Part shown: piece after piece, positions 10,912 to 21,214 of the stretch
How the letters are laid out: each line of letters starts with the position of its first letter
Position numbering within the stretch: position 1 is the first letter of the stretch
NCBI GenBank assembly: GCA_050250895.1
Contig: JBFWNU010000002.1
Coordinates: 160,001 to 224,000, forward strand
From: Vulcanimicrobiota bacterium
GTDB taxonomy: Bacteria; Vulcanimicrobiota; Xenobia; Xenobiales; JADMJV01
Direction: 5' to 3'
Length of the DNA stretch: 64,000 nucleotides
The notes under the pieces: model-generated
The model's database searches: none
Seen by the model: the letters and a program-made list of their open reading frames with translations, nothing else
What the model was told of the DNA's origin: nothing
Program-made: the position numbers and the translations under genes

Positions 10912-11442
10912 ATGAGCGCCGGCTTCGGAATTGGCCTGACCCGGGTCTTGTTGCCCATCGCCCCCCTCGCCCAGCGACTGCAGCTGCTCCAACGGCTGGT
11001 CGAACAACTTCAATTGCCGCTCTTGCGCGACTTTGTCCATCCCGCCGACGAGCCCGGCTATCGACAGGTCAGCGAACGGGCCGAATACCGTGTCGTCGAG
11101 GTGAACCGCGAGAGCTGGCGCTGGCTCGAACCCGAACAGGTCGAGCAACTCCAACAGGCAGTCGGCCAGCATTGGGCCGATTCTGGCTCGTTTGAGGAAT
11201 GCATGCAGATCTGTGACGAAGAGACGGGATTGGTGATTCCCGGCGTGGCCGCCAGCCTGCTCAACTCCAGCGGCAAGGTGCTCTGGCAGGGCCCCGACTC
11301 GTCACTGGTGGTCAAAGAGATGGCCCTCGCCCTCGAGCAACTCCGGCAGCGCGAGGGCGGGCCAGGGGTTCTAATCCGAGCACGAGAGCTGTTCGAAGTG
11401 GCTCTGGAGCATCGGTTGCCGTTCTATCTGGCCTGGGGCTAA
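10912..11442 (+). CDS. Hypothetical protein
   Basis: 3' part of the 10516 ORF from ATG 10912; protein-like composition. Confidence 0.55.
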   Translation: MSAGFGIGLTRVLLPIAPLAQRLQLLQRLVEQLQLPLLRDFVHPADEPGYRQVSERAEYRVVEVNRESWRWLEPEQVEQLQQAVGQHWADSGSFEECMQICDEETGLVIPGVAASLLNSSGKVLWQGPDSSLVVKEMALALEQLRQREGGPGVLIRARELFEVALEHRLPFYLAWG

Positions 11443-13136
11443 GGCAAGAACGGATTGCGGGCCACGAACCCGTCGATCACCCCGTTGGTGTCGTCGGCTA
11501 CCAGGTTCTCTGACTCCGAGTGAAAGACGATGAATCGCCCGTCGCCCGAAATCATGCCGAAGAAAGCCGCGCCGCCGTCGGCCGGAGGGTTTCCCTGAGG
11601 GTCCAGGTTCAAACGCGCGGTCTGACCGGTGAGCCGGTCATAGATGAACATGTCTCTGAGGTTGTTGGTGTCTACCAGGTCCACCAGGTTGGTGGCGAAC
11701 GAACTGAAGGCGACAAAGCGTCCGTCATCAGAGATGGTGGGAACGACCGAGTTTCCATCGGTCTCGGCCCCGTTGAGACCCTGGGTGATGCGCTCGATGG
11801 TGTTGGCGGTACGATCGAGCAAGAAGATGTCGGTGGCTCCGTTGGTGTCACCAGCTACGAGATTGGTGGCGTTGGATTGAAATACCAGCAGGTTGCCGTC
11901 CGGGGTCATGAAGGGTTGATTGCTACTTCCGTCAGGTTCGCCGAGCGTGCTGTTGTTGATTCGGGTGGTCGTGTTGGCCACGCGATCCCGAAGGAAAATG
12001 TCGGTGACTCCATTGAGGTCACCCGTCACCAGGTTGGTGGCGAAGGAGGAAAAGGCCACCAAATTTCCGTCCCCTGACGACATGGTCTCGGCCGAACCGC
12101 CGTCGGGTTCGCCTGCGGAGGCAGAAATGCTGAGCAACTCGACCTGACCGGTCATCCGGTTGCGGGCGTAGAGGTTGAGCTGGAAGTTGGTCAAGATGGG
12201 ACTGCTCACCACGTTGAGGCCTTGACTCAAGAAGAAGGCCAGATTGCCATCGGCCGACAACTCACCCACGCGATTGTCGTTGTTGATCTCCATCCCGAAC
12301 TGGTCTAGCGAGACTCGTTCGGTGGTGCCCGCCTGAAGGTCCCGCACGAAGACATCCGATTGTCCGTTGGTGTCACCCGGCACCAGATTGTCAGCGTCGC
12401 TGGTGAAGATCACGAACTGCTGATTGCGGGAAAGGCGGGCCTGATTGCTGTCGCCATTGGCCTCGAGGTCACTCGAGTCCAGGCTCACCCGGGTCGTCTG
12501 ACCGGTGGCCCGGTTCCTCAGAAAGATGTCGCGATGGCCGTTGCTGTCGTTGCTCACCAGGTTGGTCGCGTCCGAACCAAAGACAATCAGGTTTCCATCA
12601 GAGGAAACGAAATTCTTGAGGTCGAGCGAGGCCGCTCCATCGGCCTGATTGCCATTGGAGTCGACGGTGAAGCGTTCCAGCGGAACAAAGCCGATGGGGG
12701 TCGGTTCTTCGATCGGGCTACCGGCCTCGAATTTGACCTGGGTCACCTGGCCAGGATTGACTACCACCAGTTGCTCCTGGTCCAGAAAGCTGGCTCCGCT
12801 ACTATCGAAAATTTGGAGCGAGAGCAGATGGGTGCCGGGCACGACCTGGCTGACGGTAAAGCTCTGCAGGGCCAGGCTACGGTCAAGGTCAAAGGCCACC
12901 AACGGGTGCACCTGGCGGCCTGTCTCGGGCTCCGACAGACTGATCAGCAGTTGGTCGGCTCCGCTTTGGGCCAGCACGGCCTCCTGCCGGGGGATGAGGG
13001 CCGGAGCCAGGCGGACCGAGACGCTTCCAGCCGAGACCCCGGGCCCGGCGCTGGCGGTGCCGCCGGGTGCGCTGCCACCCCCTGTGCACCCAGCCAGTAG
13101 AAATAGACAGAGAATGACCGTGACAAAAGACTTCAT
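11439..13136 (-). CDS. Lipoprotein with a TolB/PD40-like beta-propeller (DTNG..DIFxRD repeats)
   Basis: Lipobox LAGC; five to six repeats of S-DG..VAF-S-ATNLV-GDTNG..DIFLRD. Confidence 0.85.
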   Translation of the reverse strand: MKSFVTVILCLFLLAGCTGGGSAPGGTASAGPGVSAGSVSVRLAPALIPRQEAVLAQSGADQLLISLSEPETGRQVHPLVAFDLDRSLALQSFTVSQVVPGTHLLSLQIFDSSGASFLDQEQLVVVNPGQVTQVKFEAGSPIEEPTPIGFVPLERFTVDSNGNQADGAASLDLKNFVSSDGNLIVFGSDATNLVSNDSNGHRDIFLRNRATGQTTRVSLDSSDLEANGDSNQARLSRNQQFVIFTSDADNLVPGDTNGQSDVFVRDLQAGTTERVSLDQFGMEINNDNRVGELSADGNLAFFLSQGLNVVSSPILTNFQLNLYARNRMTGQVELLSISASAGEPDGGSAETMSSGDGNLVAFSSFATNLVTGDLNGVTDIFLRDRVANTTTRINNSTLGEPDGSSNQPFMTPDGNLLVFQSNATNLVAGDTNGATDIFLLDRTANTIERITQGLNGAETDGNSVVPTISDDGRFVAFSSFATNLVDLVDTNNLRDMFIYDRLTGQTARLNLDPQGNPPADGGAAFFGMISGDGRFIVFHSESENLVADDTNGVIDGFVARNPFLP

Positions 13137-13740: not shown

Positions 13741-14574
13741 GAGCCACCACCTGTCCACTCGGGGGATGTCTTGGACGGCCAGATTCGGTTTCATGGATCC
13801 ACCATGATTCACAACGAAGATACAATGGGTGAGTTCGAGCAGCAGGATCGTCCCGCCAAGAAATGCGAGCCTGAGGGAACGATGCCCCATCGTTATCCCG
13901 CCCTCCTCACTCCGCTGGGGAACGAGACGCTGGTCTATCTGCCCCACTCCCAGAAAGCGATCTGCTTGAACGAGGTAGCCGGGGCCGTCTACCTGAGATG
14001 CGACGGAGAGACGTCGGTCGACGTGGCCGCTGAGGAAATCGGCTCGCGCGAGGTCGTCTGGCAGGCTCTAGAATCCTTCGCGGTGCACGGACTGATTCCG
14101 AGCGATACCCCCCGAGCCGCAGGCCTCGGCAGGCGCCAACTACTGAAGCTGCTGACCAGCGCGGCCTGCCTACCCGTCGTCTCGTCCGTGCTAGCCCCGA
14201 CGCCGGCTCGAGCGATGTCCGCTGCCTGTATTATCGAAAATTCGCCCACGACCAGTTGTGACCTGAGCGGCATTCCGATGGGGACGGTTCCCAACGACTG
14301 CACGTCTTGCTGCGGCGGAACCCTATGCGCCTCGGCTTGTCCAGACTGCAGCCAGTGCTTCTGTCTCCAGCGCCGCTTCTGTGTCGGGTTCGATTGTACC
14401 ACCGGTAGTTGCGCTACGGATACTCTCGTCACCGCGCGGAACTGCTACGACGACAGTACCGTCATGTTCGGGTGCAACTTTGCCGGGATCTGCCAGCGAA
14501 ACTGCGACGACGCACGGGCCGCGGCCGCCGTAGCCGGGGTGAGCTTCTACTCTTGCTGTGAGAGTTGCACCTAA
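13741..14574 (+). repeat. Direct repeat copy 1 (upstream region plus RRE-Cys-rich gene)
   Basis: gagccaccacctg...gggggatgtctt-gacggccagatt at 13741 recurs at 16091; homology runs to the stop codon. Confidence 0.9.
13882..14574 (+). CDS. PqqD/RRE-like domain fused to an internal Tat-like signal and a 20-Cys domain (copy 1)
   Basis: ETLVY...KAICLNEVAGAVYLRCDGETSV...VVWQALESF..HGLI is PqqD/RRE-like; then GRRQLLK + hydrophobic stretch + ARA; then 20 Cys. GAGGGA precedes ATG 13882; alternative in-frame ATGs at 13804 and 13825. Confidence 0.85.
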   Translation: MPHRYPALLTPLGNETLVYLPHSQKAICLNEVAGAVYLRCDGETSVDVAAEEIGSREVVWQALESFAVHGLIPSDTPRAAGLGRRQLLKLLTSAACLPVVSSVLAPTPARAMSAACIIENSPTTSCDLSGIPMGTVPNDCTSCCGGTLCASACPDCSQCFCLQRRFCVGFDCTTGSCATDTLVTARNCYDDSTVMFGCNFAGICQRNCDDARAAAAVAGVSFYSCCESCT

Positions 14575-14580
14575 CGACTT

Positions 14581-16038
14581 TTATCGCTTGGGTAGGGGTA
14601 ACTCGAAGCGAATGCTGGTGCCTTGACCCGGGCTACTCTCGAGCCAGAAGCGGCCTCCCACCAGTTCGCAACGCTCGCGCATACCGGCAATCCCGTGGCC
14701 GGGTAGCTCCTGGTATTCGAAACCCGACCCGTCATCTTCCACTCGGCCTTTCAGACGGCCATCGAGGGCGCTGATGGCCACGCGGACCTCGGTCGCCCGG
14801 CCGTGGCGCTGGGCGTTCTGCACGGCCTCCTGGACGATGCGGTAGGCGAAGAGCGAGGTCAAGCCCGCCGTCACCGGAGTGCTCAAGGCCAGTTGGCACT
14901 TGACCCGACAACTGTCGCTGCTGGCTGCCCGAGCCAGATCCTCGAGGGCCGTGGCCAGTTGGACCCCTTCACCCACGGGGCTGCGCAGACTTCTGATCAT
15001 GCCTGAGAGTTCTTTGCCCATCCGTTGGCCAAGGGTAAGGGCCTGCTGTAGCGCCTCTCGGGCGTCCTGGGGATTCTTGTCCTGAAGGGTCGTGGCCAGT
15101 TGCAGCTGGACCACCAGGGTGGCCAATTCCTGGGCCAGGGCATCGTGCAGGTCGGCGGCCAGCATCCGGCGTTCCTGTTCCTGAAACCGCACCATCTTTT
15201 CGAGGCGTCGGGTGGTGATGTCTTGCACAGCCCGCAAGATGCGGTCTCCCTGAGGGGTCGCCTGAGGCCCCGCCGTTGACAATTGAACCCAGACCACGGC
15301 CTGACCGCGGGTCATGCGCAGCTCCAACTGAAATTGGTCTAGTTTTCCGCGGCAGAGGTCGGCGAACAGTTCGGCCTCTTCGTGACCATCGCTTTCGTGG
15401 ATCAACTCGTGAAACGAGCGTCCGATCAGTTCGCTGTCACCCCCGAACTGATAATCGAAGGCCCGGTTGATCTCCACGATGCGATCCTGGCGATCGACCA
15501 GAGCCATGGCCGCGGCGCTGGTTTCGAAGAGCACAGCGAAACGACTTTCCTCGGCGTCCCAGATGCGTTGCAGGTCCGAGATCGTGGCCTTGCCCAGGGT
15601 GGCCCCATAGAAGCCCTGATGCTTTTGGTCCAGGCATCGCTCCCAGGTGTCGCCGGGCAAAGCTCCGATCTGCACGAAGAAGTCCAGGTAGTCGAGGTAG
15701 TTGGTGCACTCGAGAAACTTGTCATCTTTGACCCGGGCAAAGAGGGCCCCCGGCCAGGCCACCGACCGTCCGGTGGCCCGGTGGGTCCCGCACAAGAGCC
15801 AGCGTCCCGCGATCCCGTCTCCCTCCTGATACGTTTTCTCGATGGTCACCCTCACATCCGAGAGGATCTCGGAAAAGGTGCGAAAGACGGCTTTGAACGA
15901 CTCGAGGCCGACCGGGTCGTTAACCAGTCCCAGTGATAGGTTCTCGGGGTGCATCAGCTCTTCGATAGCGTCGAGGTCCCCCTCTTGCCAGACCCGCCGA
16001 AACCATTCGTGAATCAGCCAGGTGGAGTCGTTGGTCAT
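14581..16038 (-). CDS. Soluble histidine kinase: SnoaL-like + PAS + HisKA_3 + HATPase
   Basis: WFRRVWQEGDLDAIEEL (SnoaL/NTF2-like); FAVLFE...IVEINRAF (PAS); ERRMLAADLHDALAQ; YRIVQEAVQNAQRH, DDGSGF, GIAGMRER. Confidence 0.9.
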   Translation of the reverse strand: MTNDSTWLIHEWFRRVWQEGDLDAIEELMHPENLSLGLVNDPVGLESFKAVFRTFSEILSDVRVTIEKTYQEGDGIAGRWLLCGTHRATGRSVAWPGALFARVKDDKFLECTNYLDYLDFFVQIGALPGDTWERCLDQKHQGFYGATLGKATISDLQRIWDAEESRFAVLFETSAAAMALVDRQDRIVEINRAFDYQFGGDSELIGRSFHELIHESDGHEEAELFADLCRGKLDQFQLELRMTRGQAVVWVQLSTAGPQATPQGDRILRAVQDITTRRLEKMVRFQEQERRMLAADLHDALAQELATLVVQLQLATTLQDKNPQDAREALQQALTLGQRMGKELSGMIRSLRSPVGEGVQLATALEDLARAASSDSCRVKCQLALSTPVTAGLTSLFAYRIVQEAVQNAQRHGRATEVRVAISALDGRLKGRVEDDGSGFEYQELPGHGIAGMRERCELVGGRFWLESSPGQGTSIRFELPLPKR

Positions 16039-16090
16039 GGCTGCCGTTTCGACATGGATGAGCCAGTTCCTGAAGAATCCTGTAGAAGAA

Positions 16091-16921
16091 GAGCCACCAC
16101 CTGCCCACCCGGGGGATGTCTTCGACGGCCAGATTGGGTTCCATAGACCCACCATGAGTAACAAAGAGCATCCAATGAGCGAACACGAGCGACCAGCCAC
16201 AAAACGCGAGTCGGAGGGAGCGATGCCTCTTCGCTATCCCGCCCTTCTCACTCCGCTAGCGAACGAGACGCTGGTCTATCTACACCACCTCCAGAAGGCG
16301 ATCTGTTTGAACGAGGTCGCGGCGGCCGTATACGCTCGATGTGACGGAGAGACATCGCTCGAGGTGGTCGCTGAGGAGATCGGTTCTCGCGAGGTCGTCT
16401 GGCAGGCCCTGGACTCTCTCGCGGAACACGGACTGATTCCGAGCGATACCCACCGAGCTGCGGGCCTTGGTCGGCGCCAACTGCTGAAGCTGCTTGGCAG
16501 CGCGGCCTGCCTACCCGTCGTCTCGTCGGTGCTAGCACCGACTCCCGCTCGGGCGATGTCGGCGGCGTGTGTGATGGAGAACCCGCCCACCACCAGCTGC
16601 AGCATCGACGGTATTCCGATGGGGACGGTTCCCAACCAATGCAGTCCCTGCTGTGGCGGGGCCTGTGCCACCGCCTGTCCTACTTGTAGCCAGTGCTACT
16701 GCCAGCAGTTTCGCTTCTGCCAGGGCTTCGATTGCACGACCGGGACTTGCTCTGGAGACACCTTTATCACGGCGAGAAATTGCTACGAAGACGGCACCAG
16801 CACTGACGGCTCCTGCCTCTTCGCGGGGGGACAGGTTTGCCAGCGCGATTGTGACGCTGCTCGGGCGGCCGCAGCCAGTGTTGGGTTAAGCTTCTACTCC
16901 TGTTGTGAAAATTGCAGTTGA
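16091..16921 (+). repeat. Direct repeat copy 2
   Basis: Paralog of 13741-14574; about 7 mismatches in the first 67 nt by eye. Confidence 0.9.
16223..16921 (+). CDS. PqqD/RRE-like domain + internal Tat-like signal + 20-Cys domain (copy 2)
   Basis: Same architecture as copy 1 with all 20 Cys aligned; GGAGGGAG upstream; alternative ATGs at 16154 and 16175. Confidence 0.85.
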   Translation: MPLRYPALLTPLANETLVYLHHLQKAICLNEVAAAVYARCDGETSLEVVAEEIGSREVVWQALDSLAEHGLIPSDTHRAAGLGRRQLLKLLGSAACLPVVSSVLAPTPARAMSAACVMENPPTTSCSIDGIPMGTVPNQCSPCCGGACATACPTCSQCYCQQFRFCQGFDCTTGTCSGDTFITARNCYEDGTSTDGSCLFAGGQVCQRDCDAARAAAASVGLSFYSCCENCS

Positions 16922-16925
16922 CGAG

Positions 16926-18074
16926 CTAGAGGGCAGTTCTTGATGGGTTTAGAGGCAGGTGGCACTCGATTCGCGTGCCATCGCCGAGACCCGACCGTAG
17001 TTGGAAAGTGCCGCCGCAGGCCTGACAGCGCTCGCGCATACCGACAAGTCCGAGGCCTCCAGCAGTCAGGCCGGGTTCAAAACCGACCCCGTCGTCTTCG
17101 ACGGCGAGATAAAGACTTGCATGTTCGAGGCAGAGTTCGACCCGCACGGACTGGGCACAAGCGTGTTTGACCACGTTGGAAAGAGCTTCCTGGATGATCC
17201 GACAGGCGAAGTGGGCAGCGACCCCTTGCACCCGGTCGAGCTCACCCCGGATGCTCCATTCGACCTGCAATCCTTCCAAGGACGGTCTCTCTCGCAATTC
17301 GACCAGGCGAAGGGCCAGGTTTTGGCTGCCTGCTAGCAGTCCGGCTCGAAGGCGAGCCATGGTAGAATTGAGCTCGCGACTCATGGCTTGAACCAACCGC
17401 ATGCAGCGTTTGAGAAGTTCAGGTGACGGCCTGGCCTGGTGCTCTCCGGCTTGGAGGTGGACCCACAAGGTGGCCAGATCCTGGGCTAGTCCGTCGTGAA
17501 GTTCGCTGCAGAGCAAGCGTCGCTCGGTGGCCCGCAACTGCTCGAGTTGCTCGCGAGGCGAGGCCGTCGGGTCGAACGAGCCCTCGAAGGCGGCGGCCAG
17601 TTCGGCTTGGGACGGACTCTCCGACAGGATTGGCACCGCGGCTCGGGGTCGTACCAAGAACTCTTCCCCGGCCAGACCTCGAGCCACAGCCTCTTCGGGA
17701 ACGATCTCGAGTTGCTCGAAGAGGTTCATGAAGTCGAAGTAGTTCTGGGATTCGAGGATCTTGCCGTCGCGATAGGTGCCCCAGGAGGAGCCCGGCCAGA
17801 AGATGGCCTTGTCCTTGGTGCGATGTCGAGCCCGGGCTAACCAGCGAATCGAGAGTTGCTCGCCTTGAGCCATCCAGTCGGTGATCTCGACATCGAAGTC
17901 TTTGAGAAACGCGTTGATCGACTCATAGAAAGAGAGATAGCCCTGGGGGTCGATCGCTTCCGTCAGCAAGCCCTCGGCCTGACCATCGAACATTGTGAAA
18001 ATCAGGTCTTTCTCTTCGTTCTCCCAAACCCGCTCGAAAAATTCGACAGCAGTCTCGATGCTTGGCTTACCCAT
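16926..18074 (-). CDS. Soluble histidine kinase: SnoaL-like + HisKA_3 + HATPase
   Basis: FFERVWE...RDGKILESQNYFDF; ERRLLCSELHDGLAQ; IIQEALSNVVKHA, DDGVGF, GLVGMRER. Confidence 0.9.
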   Translation of the reverse strand: MGKPSIETAVEFFERVWENEEKDLIFTMFDGQAEGLLTEAIDPQGYLSFYESINAFLKDFDVEITDWMAQGEQLSIRWLARARHRTKDKAIFWPGSSWGTYRDGKILESQNYFDFMNLFEQLEIVPEEAVARGLAGEEFLVRPRAAVPILSESPSQAELAAAFEGSFDPTASPREQLEQLRATERRLLCSELHDGLAQDLATLWVHLQAGEHQARPSPELLKRCMRLVQAMSRELNSTMARLRAGLLAGSQNLALRLVELRERPSLEGLQVEWSIRGELDRVQGVAAHFACRIIQEALSNVVKHACAQSVRVELCLEHASLYLAVEDDGVGFEPGLTAGGLGLVGMRERCQACGGTFQLRSGLGDGTRIECHLPLNPSRTAL

Positions 18075-18169
18075 CACAGTACCTTCTTGTTCTGCCCGCC
18101 TATTCCTGGACGCGCTTATCCCGCCAGGGCTCGATACGAGCCTGAGGATGGCCAGTTGGGTGAAGCGAG

Positions 18170-18473
18170 TCACCCTTTTCTTGAACCCGGTCGCGGGTCC
18201 GACCGAATAACAACACGCCGTGAGGCTCTGGTCGCGTTGGGAAAGGCGGCTCTACTGCCGGTAGTGGCCAGTGCCGTCGTGCCCATGCCTGGGGCGGCCG
18301 CTTCGGTGGGCGTATTCGAGTGTCAACGGGGTGGCCGGTAGTTGTGGGCAGACCTGCAAGCCGAATCCGGGCGACCCTGATTTTGGTGAAATCAGAGTGT
18401 GTGGCTCTTTGTGGCCAACGGCCCCTGCGGCTACATTACGCAGGCTGCCTCACCCGTCTGTCCGTGCACCTGA
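18170..18473 (+). pseudogene. Decayed third RRE-Tat-Cys-rich gene
   Basis: Pieces in shifting frames: TLFLNPVAG / TRREALVALGKAALLPVVASAVVPMPGAAAS..EC / GSCGQTC...VC / GPCGY...VCPCT-stop (18473). Confidence 0.6.
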
Positions 18474-18477
18474 GAGA

Positions 18478-19107
18478 CTAGGCGCCAGAGAATCCCCTGG
18501 CAGTGGCTTCTACGGCCAGGGTGGTGCGGTCAGAAACCCCGAATTTACTGAAGAGGCTGTTGAGGTGCACTTTGATTCGGCTGACCGACAAGTGTAGCTT
18601 GCCGGCAATCGCCGTGTTGCTGTCGCCATCTACCACCAGGCGCAAAACGCTCTGCTCGCGCTCGGTGAGCCGGGGCACGTCCGAAGCCTCTGGCCGACGC
18701 AGCGATTGCAGCAGGGGGGCGGCGATCTGGCCGCAGAAATAGGTGCCACCGCGGGCCGCGGCCTGGATGGCGGTAACCAGTTCCTCACGTCCGATCGTCT
18801 TGAGCACGTAGCCGCTGGCCCCCGCCCGGAGTGCGGCTCGCACCTTCTCGGGTTCGTCGTGCATGCTGAGAATGAGGACCGGGAGCCCACGGTGGCGCGA
18901 CACAATCTGCTCGGTCAGTTCGACCCCACAGCCTCGACCCAGCGACAGGTCGACCAGAGCCACATCGCAAGCGGTGTCCGCCAGCATCTGCATGGCGCTG
19001 GCGGCATCGCTCGCTTCACCCACGACCTGCACTGCATGATCTGCCTCGAGCAGGGCGCGCAGGCCATCCCGAAATAGTTGGTGGTCATCCACAAGTACGA
19101 CTCTCAC
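18478..19107 (-). CDS. NarL/LuxR family response regulator
   Basis: VVLVDDH, VALVDL (phosphoacceptor Asp), ILSMH, GYVLK, LTEREQ..L HTH. Confidence 0.93.
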   Translation of the reverse strand: MRVVLVDDHQLFRDGLRALLEADHAVQVVGEASDAASAMQMLADTACDVALVDLSLGRGCGVELTEQIVSRHRGLPVLILSMHDEPEKVRAALRAGASGYVLKTIGREELVTAIQAAARGGTYFCGQIAAPLLQSLRRPEASDVPRLTEREQSVLRLVVDGDSNTAIAGKLHLSVSRIKVHLNSLFSKFGVSDRTTLAVEATARGFSGA

Positions 19108-19136
19108 GGAGCGCCGAAATTCTTCGATGGGTAGGT

Positions 19137-19208
19137 ACCGACCTGCAAATACGGCCAAATGGGTCGCGCTCGGGTGGCCAGTTGGACACGGGAATCAACC
19201 AGGTCGGT
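19137..19208. promoter_or_regulatory. Inverted 9-bp boxes between divergent response regulators (candidate operators)
   Basis: accgacctg (19137-19145) and its reverse complement caggtcggt (19200-19208). Confidence 0.35.
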
Positions 19209-19224
19209 TCCCAAGTGGAGGGTC

Positions 19225-19818
19225 ATGACCGTCCTATTATTGGTCGAGCGCGGGCTCTTCGCTGAGGGGGTTGGTTGCCTGCTGTCGCACGGTTCGGACT
19301 GGCAAATACAGATGGTTTTTGAACTCGAGCCCGCCCTCGACTTGCTCGACCACAGCCAGGTCGTGCTATACGGTCTGGCTCTTGAGCACCTGAGTTCTCT
19401 CTGCCAGGCCAGCCGGACGCCGGTGCTGGTGGTTGCCGACGATCCTGGCGAGCAAGCGGTGAAGGCAGCGTTCGGAGTCGGGGCCAGCGGTTTCATCTCT
19501 AAGAACGTGGCCGGAGAGCAATTGCTGGCGGCCATCGAGGCGGTGGCCGCCGGAGGAATCTATGTCGGCCCGAAGGCTGCGCCCTCCATCCTGGCCAACC
19601 TGCGCCGCTTCGAAGGCGCCAGCCCCGTGCCGGTCAGTCCTCGTGAACAGCAACTGCTGGATCTGCTCTGCGGAGAAAGCCTCACCAACAGGCAGCTGGC
19701 GGCCCGTCTGGGCTTGTCTGCCAGCACCATCAAGACGCAGCTCAAGTCACTCTTCAACAAATACGGGGTGGGTGACCGGACGAGCCTCGTCCTCAAGGCC
19801 ACAGGCCGCAAGCGATGA
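19225..19818 (+). CDS. Atypical NarL/LuxR regulator (pseudo-receiver + HTH)
   Basis: GGAGG RBS; LLVERG and VVLYGL replace DD and the phospho-Asp; GASGFISK and SPREQQLL...TNRQLA HTH are intact. Confidence 0.85.
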   Translation: MTVLLLVERGLFAEGVGCLLSHGSDWQIQMVFELEPALDLLDHSQVVLYGLALEHLSSLCQASRTPVLVVADDPGEQAVKAAFGVGASGFISKNVAGEQLLAAIEAVAAGGIYVGPKAAPSILANLRRFEGASPVPVSPREQQLLDLLCGESLTNRQLAARLGLSASTIKTQLKSLFNKYGVGDRTSLVLKATGRKR

Positions 19819-20236: not shown

Positions 20237-21214
20237 ATGGGGGATGGAGTGGGGTGGTGCCAGCAGCGCCTGCTGGCGCTGTGGGCCGATTTTCTAGCCA
20301 CCCGGGGGCGCAATTCGCAGGGCGGCGCGTGCGCGTCGTTCCTGCAGTTCTACGACGCCCTGGACGCCGCCATCGAAATCCGGCAACTCGATCCGGTCGA
20401 GACCATGGCCAACGGAGACGATCTCTTCGGCTATTGTCGACTGCAGGGTACGACCCGCCAGAGTGGGCGGGCCGTCGACTGGCGCTACGCGGTGCGGGTG
20501 CGCTGGCGTGACGGAAAGATCGTAGCGGGCCATCACTTCGCCGACTATTTGGCCCTCTTTCGCCAACTCGGAGTGGTCCCCGATGACCCCCGGGCCCCGG
20601 GTCGTTCGGGCGAGTTGATGTGGCCCGACCCGGTCCACGAGGCGCTGCACCGACACGAGGAAGAGCGAGCCAGTTTAGCCCGCGATATCCACGATGGAGT
20701 GGCTCAGGATGCAGCCGCTCTGTGGGCTTTTCTGTCACTGGAAGAGGCTCCGAACCACCGCCTGCGTGAGGCGGCTGACAGGATGCGTCTCGAGGCGCAA
20801 CGACTCAACGAGCACCTCAGCAACCCTCTGGAGCTGGGACAGAGCCTGGCCGAGGCGCTGACAGCGCTGGCTAGCCGGCACGCGCTCGAGAGCGACCTTT
20901 ATCTCGACCTGGACATCGCCTGTGACCTGGCAGGTAGCCTTCGAGCGGTTGTCTATCGTGTGGTTCAGGAGGCCGTGCAAAATGTGGCCCGCCATGCCGG
21001 TGTGAATACGGTCAGGGTGGTCTTGTACGAGCGCGCTGGCAGGCTGGTCGGGCAGGTGGTGGACCAGGGTAGGGGAGTGGGTTCGAGGCCGCCCGGTTTC
21101 GGAATCGCTGGCATGCTCGAACGGTGTCGTCTGGCCGGAGGGACCTGTGAGGTTCAGGCCACCCCCGGCGGGGGGACCACCGTTCACTTCGAGTTGCCGC
21201 TGGAGGTTCGATGA
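20237..21214 (+). CDS. Soluble histidine kinase with an N-terminally eroded SnoaL-like domain + HisKA_3 + HATPase
   Basis: WRDGKIV...ADYLALFRQLG; EERASLARDIHDGVAQ; YRVVQEAVQNVARHA, DQGRG, GIAGMLER. Confidence 0.85.
   Translation: MGDGVGWCQQRLLALWADFLATRGRNSQGGACASFLQFYDALDAAIEIRQLDPVETMANGDDLFGYCRLQGTTRQSGRAVDWRYAVRVRWRDGKIVAGHHFADYLALFRQLGVVPDDPRAPGRSGELMWPDPVHEALHRHEEERASLARDIHDGVAQDAAALWAFLSLEEAPNHRLREAADRMRLEAQRLNEHLSNPLELGQSLAEALTALASRHALESDLYLDLDIACDLAGSLRAVVYRVVQEAVQNVARHAGVNTVRVVLYERAGRLVGQVVDQGRGVGSRPPGFGIAGMLERCRLAGGTCEVQATPGGGTTVHFELPLEVR

Follow-up and report, generated by a model that had tools for sequence, protein, structure and literature searches.

Two paralogous genes with a three-part layout

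A stretch of 64,000 nucleotides from a Vulcanimicrobiota bacterium (assembly GCA_050250895.1, contig JBFWNU010000002.1, positions 160,001 to 224,000 of the forward strand; here called the window) was analysed. It carries two plus-strand genes for small proteins in which a domain resembling a RiPP recognition element (RRE; RiPP, ribosomally synthesised and post-translationally modified peptide) is followed by a segment resembling a twin-arginine translocation (Tat) signal and by a cysteine-rich tail. Copy 1 (P0001) lies at 13882-14574 and encodes 230 aa plus stop; copy 2 (P0002) lies at 16223-16921 and encodes 232 aa plus stop. Both open reading frames had been pointed out in a preliminary description of the locus and were confirmed. 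They match the hidden Markov model (HMM) of the family described below with E-values of 1.8e-36 and 7.4e-41, respectively. In copy 1 the RRE/PqqD-like domain (aa 1-75) is encoded at 13882-14106, the linker with the signal-like segment (aa 76-111, based on column frequencies in 150 homologs) at 14107-14214 and the C-terminal part, here termed the passenger (aa 112-230), at 14215-14571. The corresponding parts of copy 2 are found at 16223-16447, 16448-16555 and 16556-16918, all on the plus strand.

The two proteins are paralogs and share 77% identity across their full length. At the DNA level, blastn aligned 13741-14577 with 16091-16924 at 76% identity, that is, from about 140 nt upstream of the ATG to the stop codon. 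The homologous upstream regions (promoter or 5' leader; 13741-13881 and 16091-16222, plus strand) are confined to the two window copies, and no further occurrence of this element of about 140 nt was found in the same genome. A Shine-Dalgarno-like sequence, GAGGGA in copy 1 and GGAGGG in copy 2, is located three nucleotides ahead of the ATG and supports the assigned start codons. One public gene call (P0003) uses an alternative start 19 codons upstream.

The N-terminal domain is modelled as an RRE

An AlphaFold2 (AF2) model of the full-length protein, built with 150 homologs, reached a mean predicted local distance difference test score (pLDDT) of 82, with 90-97 in the blocks of the N-terminal domain. 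Three strands (residues 8-12, 15-20 and 25-29) are followed by three helices (31-38, 46-53 and 56-68) in a winged-helix arrangement. Structural comparison with VIA returned the RREs of lasso-peptide B1 proteins (TbiB1, FusB1; chains 5v1u_A and 6jx3_B) as best matches (Z 9.4, rmsd 2.0 Å, 74 residues aligned). The RREs of NisB, CteB, MibB, PqqD, TbtB, LynD and PbtF, and also TigE, were among the further matches, with a Z of 6.4 for PqqD (5sxy). TbiB1 was likewise the best Foldseek match. On the basis of these models, the N-terminal domain is an RRE with the PqqD winged-helix fold.

At the sequence level, the Pfam family PqqD (PF05402) scored 16.2 and 17.0 bits in the window proteins, below the gathering score of 23.4. 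The PqqD-like domain proposed earlier is thus upheld by its fold, whereas by Pfam alone the window copies stay under the threshold. With a limit of E <= 0.1, Pfam PqqD is found in 137 of the 150 family representatives, the best match having an E-value of 4.3e-13; this set of 150 was used for all column, charge, cysteine and Pfam counts given here. According to a precomputed table, PF05402 is carried by close Acidobacteriota members, and an ESM Atlas query with the whole protein returned solely PqqD-containing or unnamed clusters. The domain has a net negative charge in 139 of the 150 members and is therefore unlike a DNA binder. A ToxR/CadC-like DNA-binding domain was set aside for this reason and because of its lower fold scores (Z 4.5-4.8, versus 9.4 for RREs).

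An internal segment resembles a twin-arginine signal

The segment GLGRRQLLKLL.SAACLPVVSSVLAPTPARA|MS spans residues 81-113 in both copies and is internal, as the preliminary description had it. The arginine pair corresponds to residues 84-85 (14131-14136 in copy 1, plus strand) within G-R-R-Q-L-L-K and is followed by the hydrophobic stretch (h-region) LLKLLTSAACLPVVSSVLA and by PTPARA. Conservation of this pair in homologs, on which the earlier interpretation had been staked, was found in 148 of the 150 representatives, and lysine never takes its place. At positions +5 and +6, lysine and arginine are freely mixed (67/55 and 62/42). That the pair never contains lysine while these positions accept both residues argues for specific recognition of the arginines. 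Serine or threonine precedes the pair in 115/150, and [VLAMFI][ILVM][KR] follows downstream. The h-region has a median length of 17 aa and a mean Kyte-Doolittle hydrophobicity of 2.05. The core S/T-R-R-x-hydrophobic-hydrophobic-K, the moderate h-region and a proline ahead of A-x-A all resemble known Tat signals. A profile of the family gave weak matches among PDB sequences to the Tat signals of AioB (the Rieske subunit of arsenite oxidase) and PaoA (E 0.045-0.29), and TIGR02811 matched the window proteins weakly (E 0.22 and 0.029). The same genome encodes one TatC and three TatA/B proteins.

A signal-peptidase site is predicted after Ala111 (A-x-A), a median of 28 residues from the arginine pair to the alanine at -1. 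Alanine occupies -3 in 95/150 and -1 in 139/150 sequences, and Pro106 at -6 is kept in 147/150. The family consensus reads ..ALP[VI][VI]SS..AP.A.A.S, and position 95 is never Y or W. Each of the two prolines in ALP[VI][VI]SS..AP is kept in 147/150. Judging from these columns, the segment is conserved beyond what a generic export signal would need. Two residues past the predicted cut, Ser113 is found in 131/150 members, with Thr in 11 more, giving the consensus A-x-A-[A/Q]-S.

Cysteine-rich tails and other passengers

In copy 1 the tail after ARA comprises 119 aa, among them the conserved Ser113 and 20 cysteines. All 23 cysteines of each protein align between the copies, 20 of them in the tail, and the motifs CxxCC, CxxxCxxCxxCxC and terminal CCxxC were found as reported before; the C-terminal motif can be written C..C..AR...Y.CC..C(T/S). 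The AF2 model of the tail alone had a pLDDT of 67. Compared with 48,161 chains by VIA it gave no match at Z >= 2, and Foldseek returned only rows with E >= 2.7 to three-finger/activin-receptor folds (probability <= 0.04). We make no claim of a new fold; the tail model is of modest quality. The ESM Atlas gave no usable match with a tail-only query, and the tails have no match in Pfam.

Cysteine is present in 141 of the 150 tails, and the count is even in 135 of these 141, most often 6, 8, 10, 12 or 20. The C-C-CC-C-C spacing of cystine knots occurs in 9 of 32 six-cysteine tails. Because even counts prevail to this extent, with 6, 10 and 14 common, disulfides are favoured over metal sites with four cysteines. 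The preliminary description had left the product as either disulfide-rich or a polynuclear metal-binding protein; these counts favour the first and make the second less so.

The tail could instead be modified on its cysteines in the cytoplasm, by thioethers (radical SAM chemistry), heterocycles or an Fe-S or other polynuclear metal centre, so that a folded product would leave through Tat. The Tat route carries folded or cofactor-loaded proteins, RREs are common in radical SAM maturases (CteB and TigE are among the fold matches), and the bufferins, as far as the available part of their description goes, are cysteine-bearing RiPP precursors with general export signals (PMC11626156). We consider this very unlikely. 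The surroundings of 24 loci of the same genome encode neither a radical SAM nor an MNIO enzyme nor a member of any further conserved enzyme family, and no such enzyme appeared among the conserved neighbours of 78 Acidobacteriota loci and 20 loci of relatives. The even cysteine counts fit pairing better than four-cysteine metal sites, and many passengers contain no cysteine at all, vWA, Thr/Pro-rich and collagen-like ones among them.

Indeed, while the disulfide-rich reading is favoured for the cysteine-containing tails, the passengers are hypervariable across the family, and some have just 2-30 residues. Besides cysteine-rich tails there are stretches rich in Thr/Pro, a GPT repeat of the collagen type, a protein rich in Gly and a vWA protein. 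In two relatives' loci (L113:7027-7485, plus strand, and L109:8122-9042, minus strand) a GPTGPTG repeat resembling collagen or an extended Gly-rich stretch takes the place of the cysteine-rich domain. At another relative's locus (L121:4910-6850, plus strand) a YfbK-type vWA protein of 646 aa has the RRE and twin-arginine module, with a second, partial RRE, in place of its signal peptide, and an NTP_transf_5 gene overlaps the stop codon. Since one module precedes such diverse passengers, including a complete 646-aa vWA protein, it appears to behave as a portable export leader.

Unequal divergence of the two window copies

Leader and tail differ in conservation between the copies: 97 of 111 residues are identical in the RRE plus signal, compared to 83 of 118 in the tail (Fisher p = 0.002). 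This bears out the preliminary description, which had read the contrast as a constant leader joined to a variable core. Across the family such a pattern exists. Between the window copies, unequal synonymous divergence explains it instead, dS being 0.45-0.51 in the leader and 1.6-2.4 in the tail. The ratio dN/dS is 0.08-0.17 across all three parts, which corresponds to purifying selection. Diversifying selection on the tail of the window copies was rejected (dN/dS 0.08-0.16). Because synonymous divergence is also unequal and dN/dS stays below 0.2 everywhere, the contrast suggests that the 5' halves share a more recent ancestor, underwent gene conversion or have a mosaic origin.

The window genes belong to a large family

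A k-mer search for homologs of P0001 returned only the proteins of the window itself. A full HMMER search found 2,241 representative clusters at E <= 0.001 and 185 at E <= 1e-10, most of which cover the RRE and the signal. The window genes thus belong to a large, so far undescribed protein family. The 9.5-Mb genome of the window encodes 28 fused members, plus a few discrete PqqD proteins in kinase/transferase clusters, and its relatives encode 0-6 members each. Public annotation of the relatives lists them only as 'PqqD family protein' or 'hypothetical protein'. A search for large fused forms with the family alignment found none, which is weak evidence. Among sequencing runs, six from DNA were listed as matching, with small shares (0.06-0.19), and none from RNA. 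On contig 1 of the same genome (3776.6-3779.8 kb), two near-identical genes encode a tail homologous to the 20-cysteine domain, with neither RRE nor arginine pair (DIDFLATAGKAAAIPVIL...); these may be degenerate or differently targeted copies.

An HprK-related kinase and a nucleotidyltransferase adjoin many family members

The neighbourhood of the gene was analysed at 78 Acidobacteriota loci, mostly from Pyrinomonadaceae, 40 of them with full flanks. An HprK-related kinase is encoded beside the gene in 34 of the 78 loci, a nucleotidyltransferase of the NTP_transf_5 family (PF14907) in 23, and both in 22. Among the fully flanked loci, the kinase is present in 20 and NTP_transf_5 in 13. The usual order is kinase, family gene, transferase on one strand, with gaps below about 130 nt. 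The neighbouring kinase has about 280 aa and matches HprK-related kinase A and B, ScmC and HPr kinase, in each case below the cut-off. In relatives of the window's own genome, the kinase lies within 2.8 kb in 12 of 20 loci, and the transferase matches Pfam with E-values of 1e-35 to 1e-43. No recurring family beside the gene, except the kinase and NTP_transf_5, was found among the neighbours at the 78 Acidobacteriota and 20 relatives' loci.

Co-occurrence was also analysed in 41 related genomes, which are kin and hence not independent. The family and the kinase clade occur together in 15, the kinase alone in 3 and neither in 23. The family is never found apart from the kinase clade (15 of 15 genomes), which speaks for dependence on it rather than for an add-on. 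The window's own genome encodes three kinases of this clade, on contig 1 at about 0.899, 1.387 and 2.698 Mb, one of which is encoded next to three sulfotransferases, one methyltransferase and two family members whose tails are rich in Thr. This locus (contig 1, 896.5-901.4 kb; L129) carries a methyltransferase gene, the two RRE-Tat genes, Sulfotransfer_2, the HprK-related kinase and two Sulfotransfer_3 genes. The Thr-rich tails are exemplified by ATTTTSTTEEATTTEESTTTTEPP. Its gene content suggests that the cluster serves to tailor secreted peptides rich in Thr/Ser. Genes for discrete PqqD-like proteins also occur together with NTP_transf_5 and weaker HprK-related kinases in two separate clusters of this genome (contig 2, 589-596 kb; contig 9, 228-242 kb), which may be systems of the lasso or HPr-rel-A type.

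A model for tailored and exported pro-proteins

We propose, with a probability of about 0.55, that the window genes encode exported pro-proteins with a leader made of an RRE, a Tat-type signal and an A-x-A site, tailoring by an HprK-type kinase, and a variable passenger. The pro-protein would be made in the cytoplasm, where its RRE would serve as docking platform for a tailoring enzyme, as in lasso-peptide and linear polyphosphorylated peptide (LPP) systems. In most relatives that can be characterised this enzyme would be the HprK-related kinase, often with the NTP_transf_5 nucleotidyltransferase, and the likeliest acceptor would be the conserved serine beside the cleavage site. Guided by the twin-arginine signal, the C-terminal part would then cross the membrane and leave the RRE on the cytoplasmic side, and signal peptidase I would cleave after Ala111. 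The freed passenger would oxidise and form up to ten disulfides. The preliminary description had suggested recruitment of a modifying enzyme encoded elsewhere; the kinase and NTP_transf_5 context of other members gives this real support, and the window itself offers none. For the window copies we infer tailoring from relatives, because no such enzyme is encoded nearby. One of the genome's three kinases of this clade would act on them in trans, or they may have lost the tailoring step.

Several observations weigh against this model. The Pfam family TAT_signal (PF10518) is recognised in just 4 of 150 members (E <= 0.1), and in neither window protein even at E <= 1. The signal is not a textbook N-terminal one; it lies about 80 residues into the protein, behind a folded domain of 75 aa. 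Over the most hydrophobic 19 residues the median hydrophobicity is 1.78, sufficient for an anchor inserted by Sec/YidC. A domain of 119 aa with 20 cysteines cannot fold oxidatively in the cytoplasm, and Tat would therefore have to carry an unfolded or otherwise stabilised chain. The conserved serine may reflect the preference of signal peptidase rather than phosphorylation. The neighbouring kinases score 44-63 bits against TIGR04352, whose cut-off is 200. Out to a distance of 8 kb, the window copies have neither a kinase nor an NTP_transf_5, a sulfotransferase or any further conserved partner beside them; the nearest kinase and transferase matches on this contig, at 589-596 kb, are outside the window. 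Around 24 loci of the same genome, taken from the first search, no neighbour family recurs, and most of these loci have none of the enzymes within 8 kb. Just 2 of the genome's 28 fused members are adjacent to a kinase, at one locus, and 26 of 28 stand apart. In genomes rich in paralogs, most copies lie apart from the enzymes; in one Acidobacteriota assembly the kinase is found at 0 of the nine paralog loci analysed. It is also lacking at half of the fully flanked loci.

A broader proposal is offered tentatively, as we think it somewhat more probably wrong than right. The family might represent a widespread new class in which a cis-fused RRE couples cytoplasmic tailoring to Tat export. An HprK-type kinase and NTP_transf_5 would phosphorylate and further decorate the serine that comes to lie near the new N-terminus, and one kinase or a few per genome would serve dozens of dispersed, hypervariable, disulfide-rich passengers, of which the present genome has 28. 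Bacteria would then have a natural RiPP-like system routed through Tat, the first of its kind, and would be a source of mini-proteins resembling knottins. If the model holds, leader recognition as in RiPPs, Tat targeting and processing by signal peptidase would be joined in one polypeptide. Tailoring in the manner of RiPPs would no longer be confined to short peptides, and folded proteins rich in disulfides and, in one relative, a vWA protein of 646 aa would undergo it as well. A sequence rule (PqqD-like domain, then SRRE..KK.G..ALP..SS..AP.A.A.S) would pick out candidate secreted mini-proteins by the thousand from bacteria of soil and sludge, and it would be testable whether a cis-fused peptide-binding domain gates Tat export.

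Comparison with known systems

Neither a Tat signal on a natural RiPP precursor nor such a fusion of RRE and substrate is described in the literature searched; supplementary files, which may hold relevant lists, were outside the scope of this search. The closest parallel is provided by the LPPs of Bacillota (Popov et al., Nat Commun 2026, PMC13381572), compared here on the basis of the available portions of that report. In LPP systems an HprK-like kinase polyphosphorylates Ser3 of a core starting with AQS, and an enzyme resembling signal peptidase I requires the RRE for cutting and prefers the phosphorylated substrate. The N-terminus of LPP precursors is conserved, whereas the C-termini vary strongly and can reach about 200 aa (PMC13381572). 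The likeness extends to the recurring combination of an RRE, an HprK-like kinase and an uncharacterised NTP transferase (here in other members of the family), to a conserved N-terminal part with a variable C-terminus, to leader removal of the signal-peptidase-I type (here predicted) and to a conserved serine 2-3 residues after the cut (AQS... in LPPs, A|[A/Q]S here).

There are also differences. The RRE is a discrete protein in LPP systems and is fused to the substrate here. LPP leaders carry the motif YxxPxVLxHQxIxFETxxS; in its place the present family has a twin-arginine signal, with no aromatic residue at the first position, and the motif likeness is limited to an x-x-P-x-hydrophobic spacing and the serine after the cut. 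Neither a SipW-type signal peptidase I nor an MsbA-type exporter recurs among the neighbours here. Most passengers here are probably rich in disulfides, the family occurs in Acidobacteriota and in the lineage of the window instead of Bacillota, and the window copies have none of the LPP enzymes nearby.

Some loci in both systems lie among polysaccharide genes. Kinase-linked loci of the Acidobacteriota set (L031-L108) and several of the relatives' loci (L109-L128) adjoin genes for a CapD-type dehydratase, a WecA-type transferase, group 1 glycosyltransferases and a chain-length determinant. This setting could recall the capsule loci of LPPs or could be synteny of the lineage.

Lasso-peptide B1 proteins are the best structural match of the N-terminal domain, as described above. 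The pair of kinase and nucleotidyltransferase is known as secondary tailoring of lasso peptides according to the accessible text of the LPP report (PMC13381572), and in this pair the family resembles paeninodin-type tailoring by homologs of HPr kinase. In contrast to lasso systems, neither a lasso cyclase nor a B2 peptidase is among the conserved neighbours, the RRE resides in the substrate and the YxxP motif is absent.

Bufferins offer a second parallel. As far as the accessible text on them goes, their DUF2282 precursors work with an MNIO enzyme and a DUF2063 RRE partner, carry a Sec signal and four cysteines and undergo thiooxazole chemistry, and the authors call a general (Sec) export signal on RiPP precursors rare (PMC11626156). 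The likeness lies in long, cysteine-containing precursors of RiPP type with a general export signal and a periplasmic product after cleavage by signal peptidase, export and cleavage being predicted for the present family. Bufferins differ in having their Sec signal at the very N-terminus, a discrete RRE partner and four cysteines. DUF2282 has no Pfam match in the tails of the family, and neither MNIO nor DUF2063 genes were found as neighbours at the 24 loci of the same genome.

The HPr-rel-A and SynChlorMet systems (TIGR04352/04355; ScmC/ScmD) likewise pair a kinase with a protein of the PqqD family. The neighbouring kinases match TIGR04352, TIGR04355 and ScmC, and one family member matches ScmD, yet these matches fall far below the curated cut-offs, so that we regard them as relatives and not as members. 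PqqD proteins are discrete in HPr-rel-A and SynChlorMet systems.

Tat proofreading chaperones (TorD, DmsD, NapD) bind the signal and delay export, and Rieske proteins are Tat substrates anchored by their signal. The putative signal-binding domain in the present family is an RRE fused in cis, unlike the TorD-family proteins, which act in trans. The RRE might be nothing but a built-in counterpart of TorD, DmsD or NapD that holds the signal peptide; the window proteins would then be unmodified, and the kinase linkage would be an add-on of particular lineages. The ALP[VI][VI]SS..AP consensus, conserved far past the needs of export, agrees with this, as does the scarcity of enzymes near most copies in the same genome. 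AF2 places residues 100-104 of the full-length model in a strand, although its pLDDT is just 67-71. The spacing hydrophobic-x-x-P-x-hydrophobic parallels the [Y/W]xxPx[LVIFA] motif which, in the available text, is bound by the RREs of lasso and LPP systems (PMC13381572), but the first position (95) is never Y or W in this family. A predicted complex of the RRE (1-75) with its own leader (76-116) gave ipSAE values of 0.01 and 0.02, computed without controls, which count neither for nor against binding. Given that the kinase clade accompanies the family in all 15 related genomes that have it, we doubt that chaperoning is the sole function, while granting it some weight beside the proposed tailored pro-protein.

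Neighbouring genes at the locus

Directly upstream of copy 1, a lipoprotein-like protein of 565 aa with PD40 (TolB-type beta-propeller) repeats is encoded at 11439-13136 (minus strand). Three paralogous, soluble histidine kinases with a SnoaL domain, one of them also with a PAS domain, are encoded at 14581-16200 (minus), 16926-18173 (minus) and 20237-21214 (plus). Each copy is convergent with one of the two minus-strand kinases, of the type SnoaL(-PAS)-HisKA_3-HATPase, with stop codons 4-6 nt apart. Two NarL-type regulators follow at 18478-19158 (minus) and 19159-19818 (plus). The SnoaL-like N-terminal sensor domain, which has the polyketide-cyclase fold, is an unusual input domain for a kinase. 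No link between the three SnoaL histidine kinases and the cysteine-rich genes could be shown.

This neighbourhood raises another reading, in which the proteins are uncleaved type II membrane proteins. The signal would act as an anchor, the cysteine-rich part would be an extracytoplasmic sensor or binding module, and the RRE-like domain would signal to a soluble partner, possibly the SnoaL-domain histidine kinase located tail-to-tail with each copy. Besides the convergent kinases, the two regulators and the third kinase at the locus, the hydrophobicity of the segment given above is compatible with it, and winged helices of the ToxR and CadC type are among the weaker fold matches of the N-terminal domain (Z 4.5-4.8). 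We nevertheless regard this reading, and the partnership with these kinases, as unlikely. Among the 24 loci of the same genome, the kinase neighbourhood is seen at this one alone. Alanine at -3 and -1 and proline at -6 are conserved as in cleaved signals, the N-terminal domain is mostly acidic and scores Z 9.4 with RREs versus about 4.7 with winged helix-turn-helix regulators, and hypervariable tails of sometimes 2-30 residues would be odd for a sensor. The two adjacent histidine kinases are only 27-38% identical to each other, compared to 77% for the cysteine-rich genes, and were therefore not duplicated together with them. A joint duplication of the cysteine-rich gene and its adjacent kinase was also rejected on the DNA level, where similarity ends at the gene plus 140 nt upstream. 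A cleaved, exported pro-protein is thus preferred over a membrane-bound sensor.

A remnant of a third copy was detected by three-frame translation at 18207-18341 (plus strand), where it matches positions 109-147 of the family HMM (E 5e-5). It consists of the signal-like segment with arginine pair, h-region and A-x-A site, ITTRREALVALGKAALLPVVASAVVPMPGAAAS, plus 11 residues. It has neither an RRE nor an ATG ahead of the arginine pair, and cysteine-containing sequence runs on in another frame. The remnant sits between the second histidine kinase and the first NarL-type regulator.

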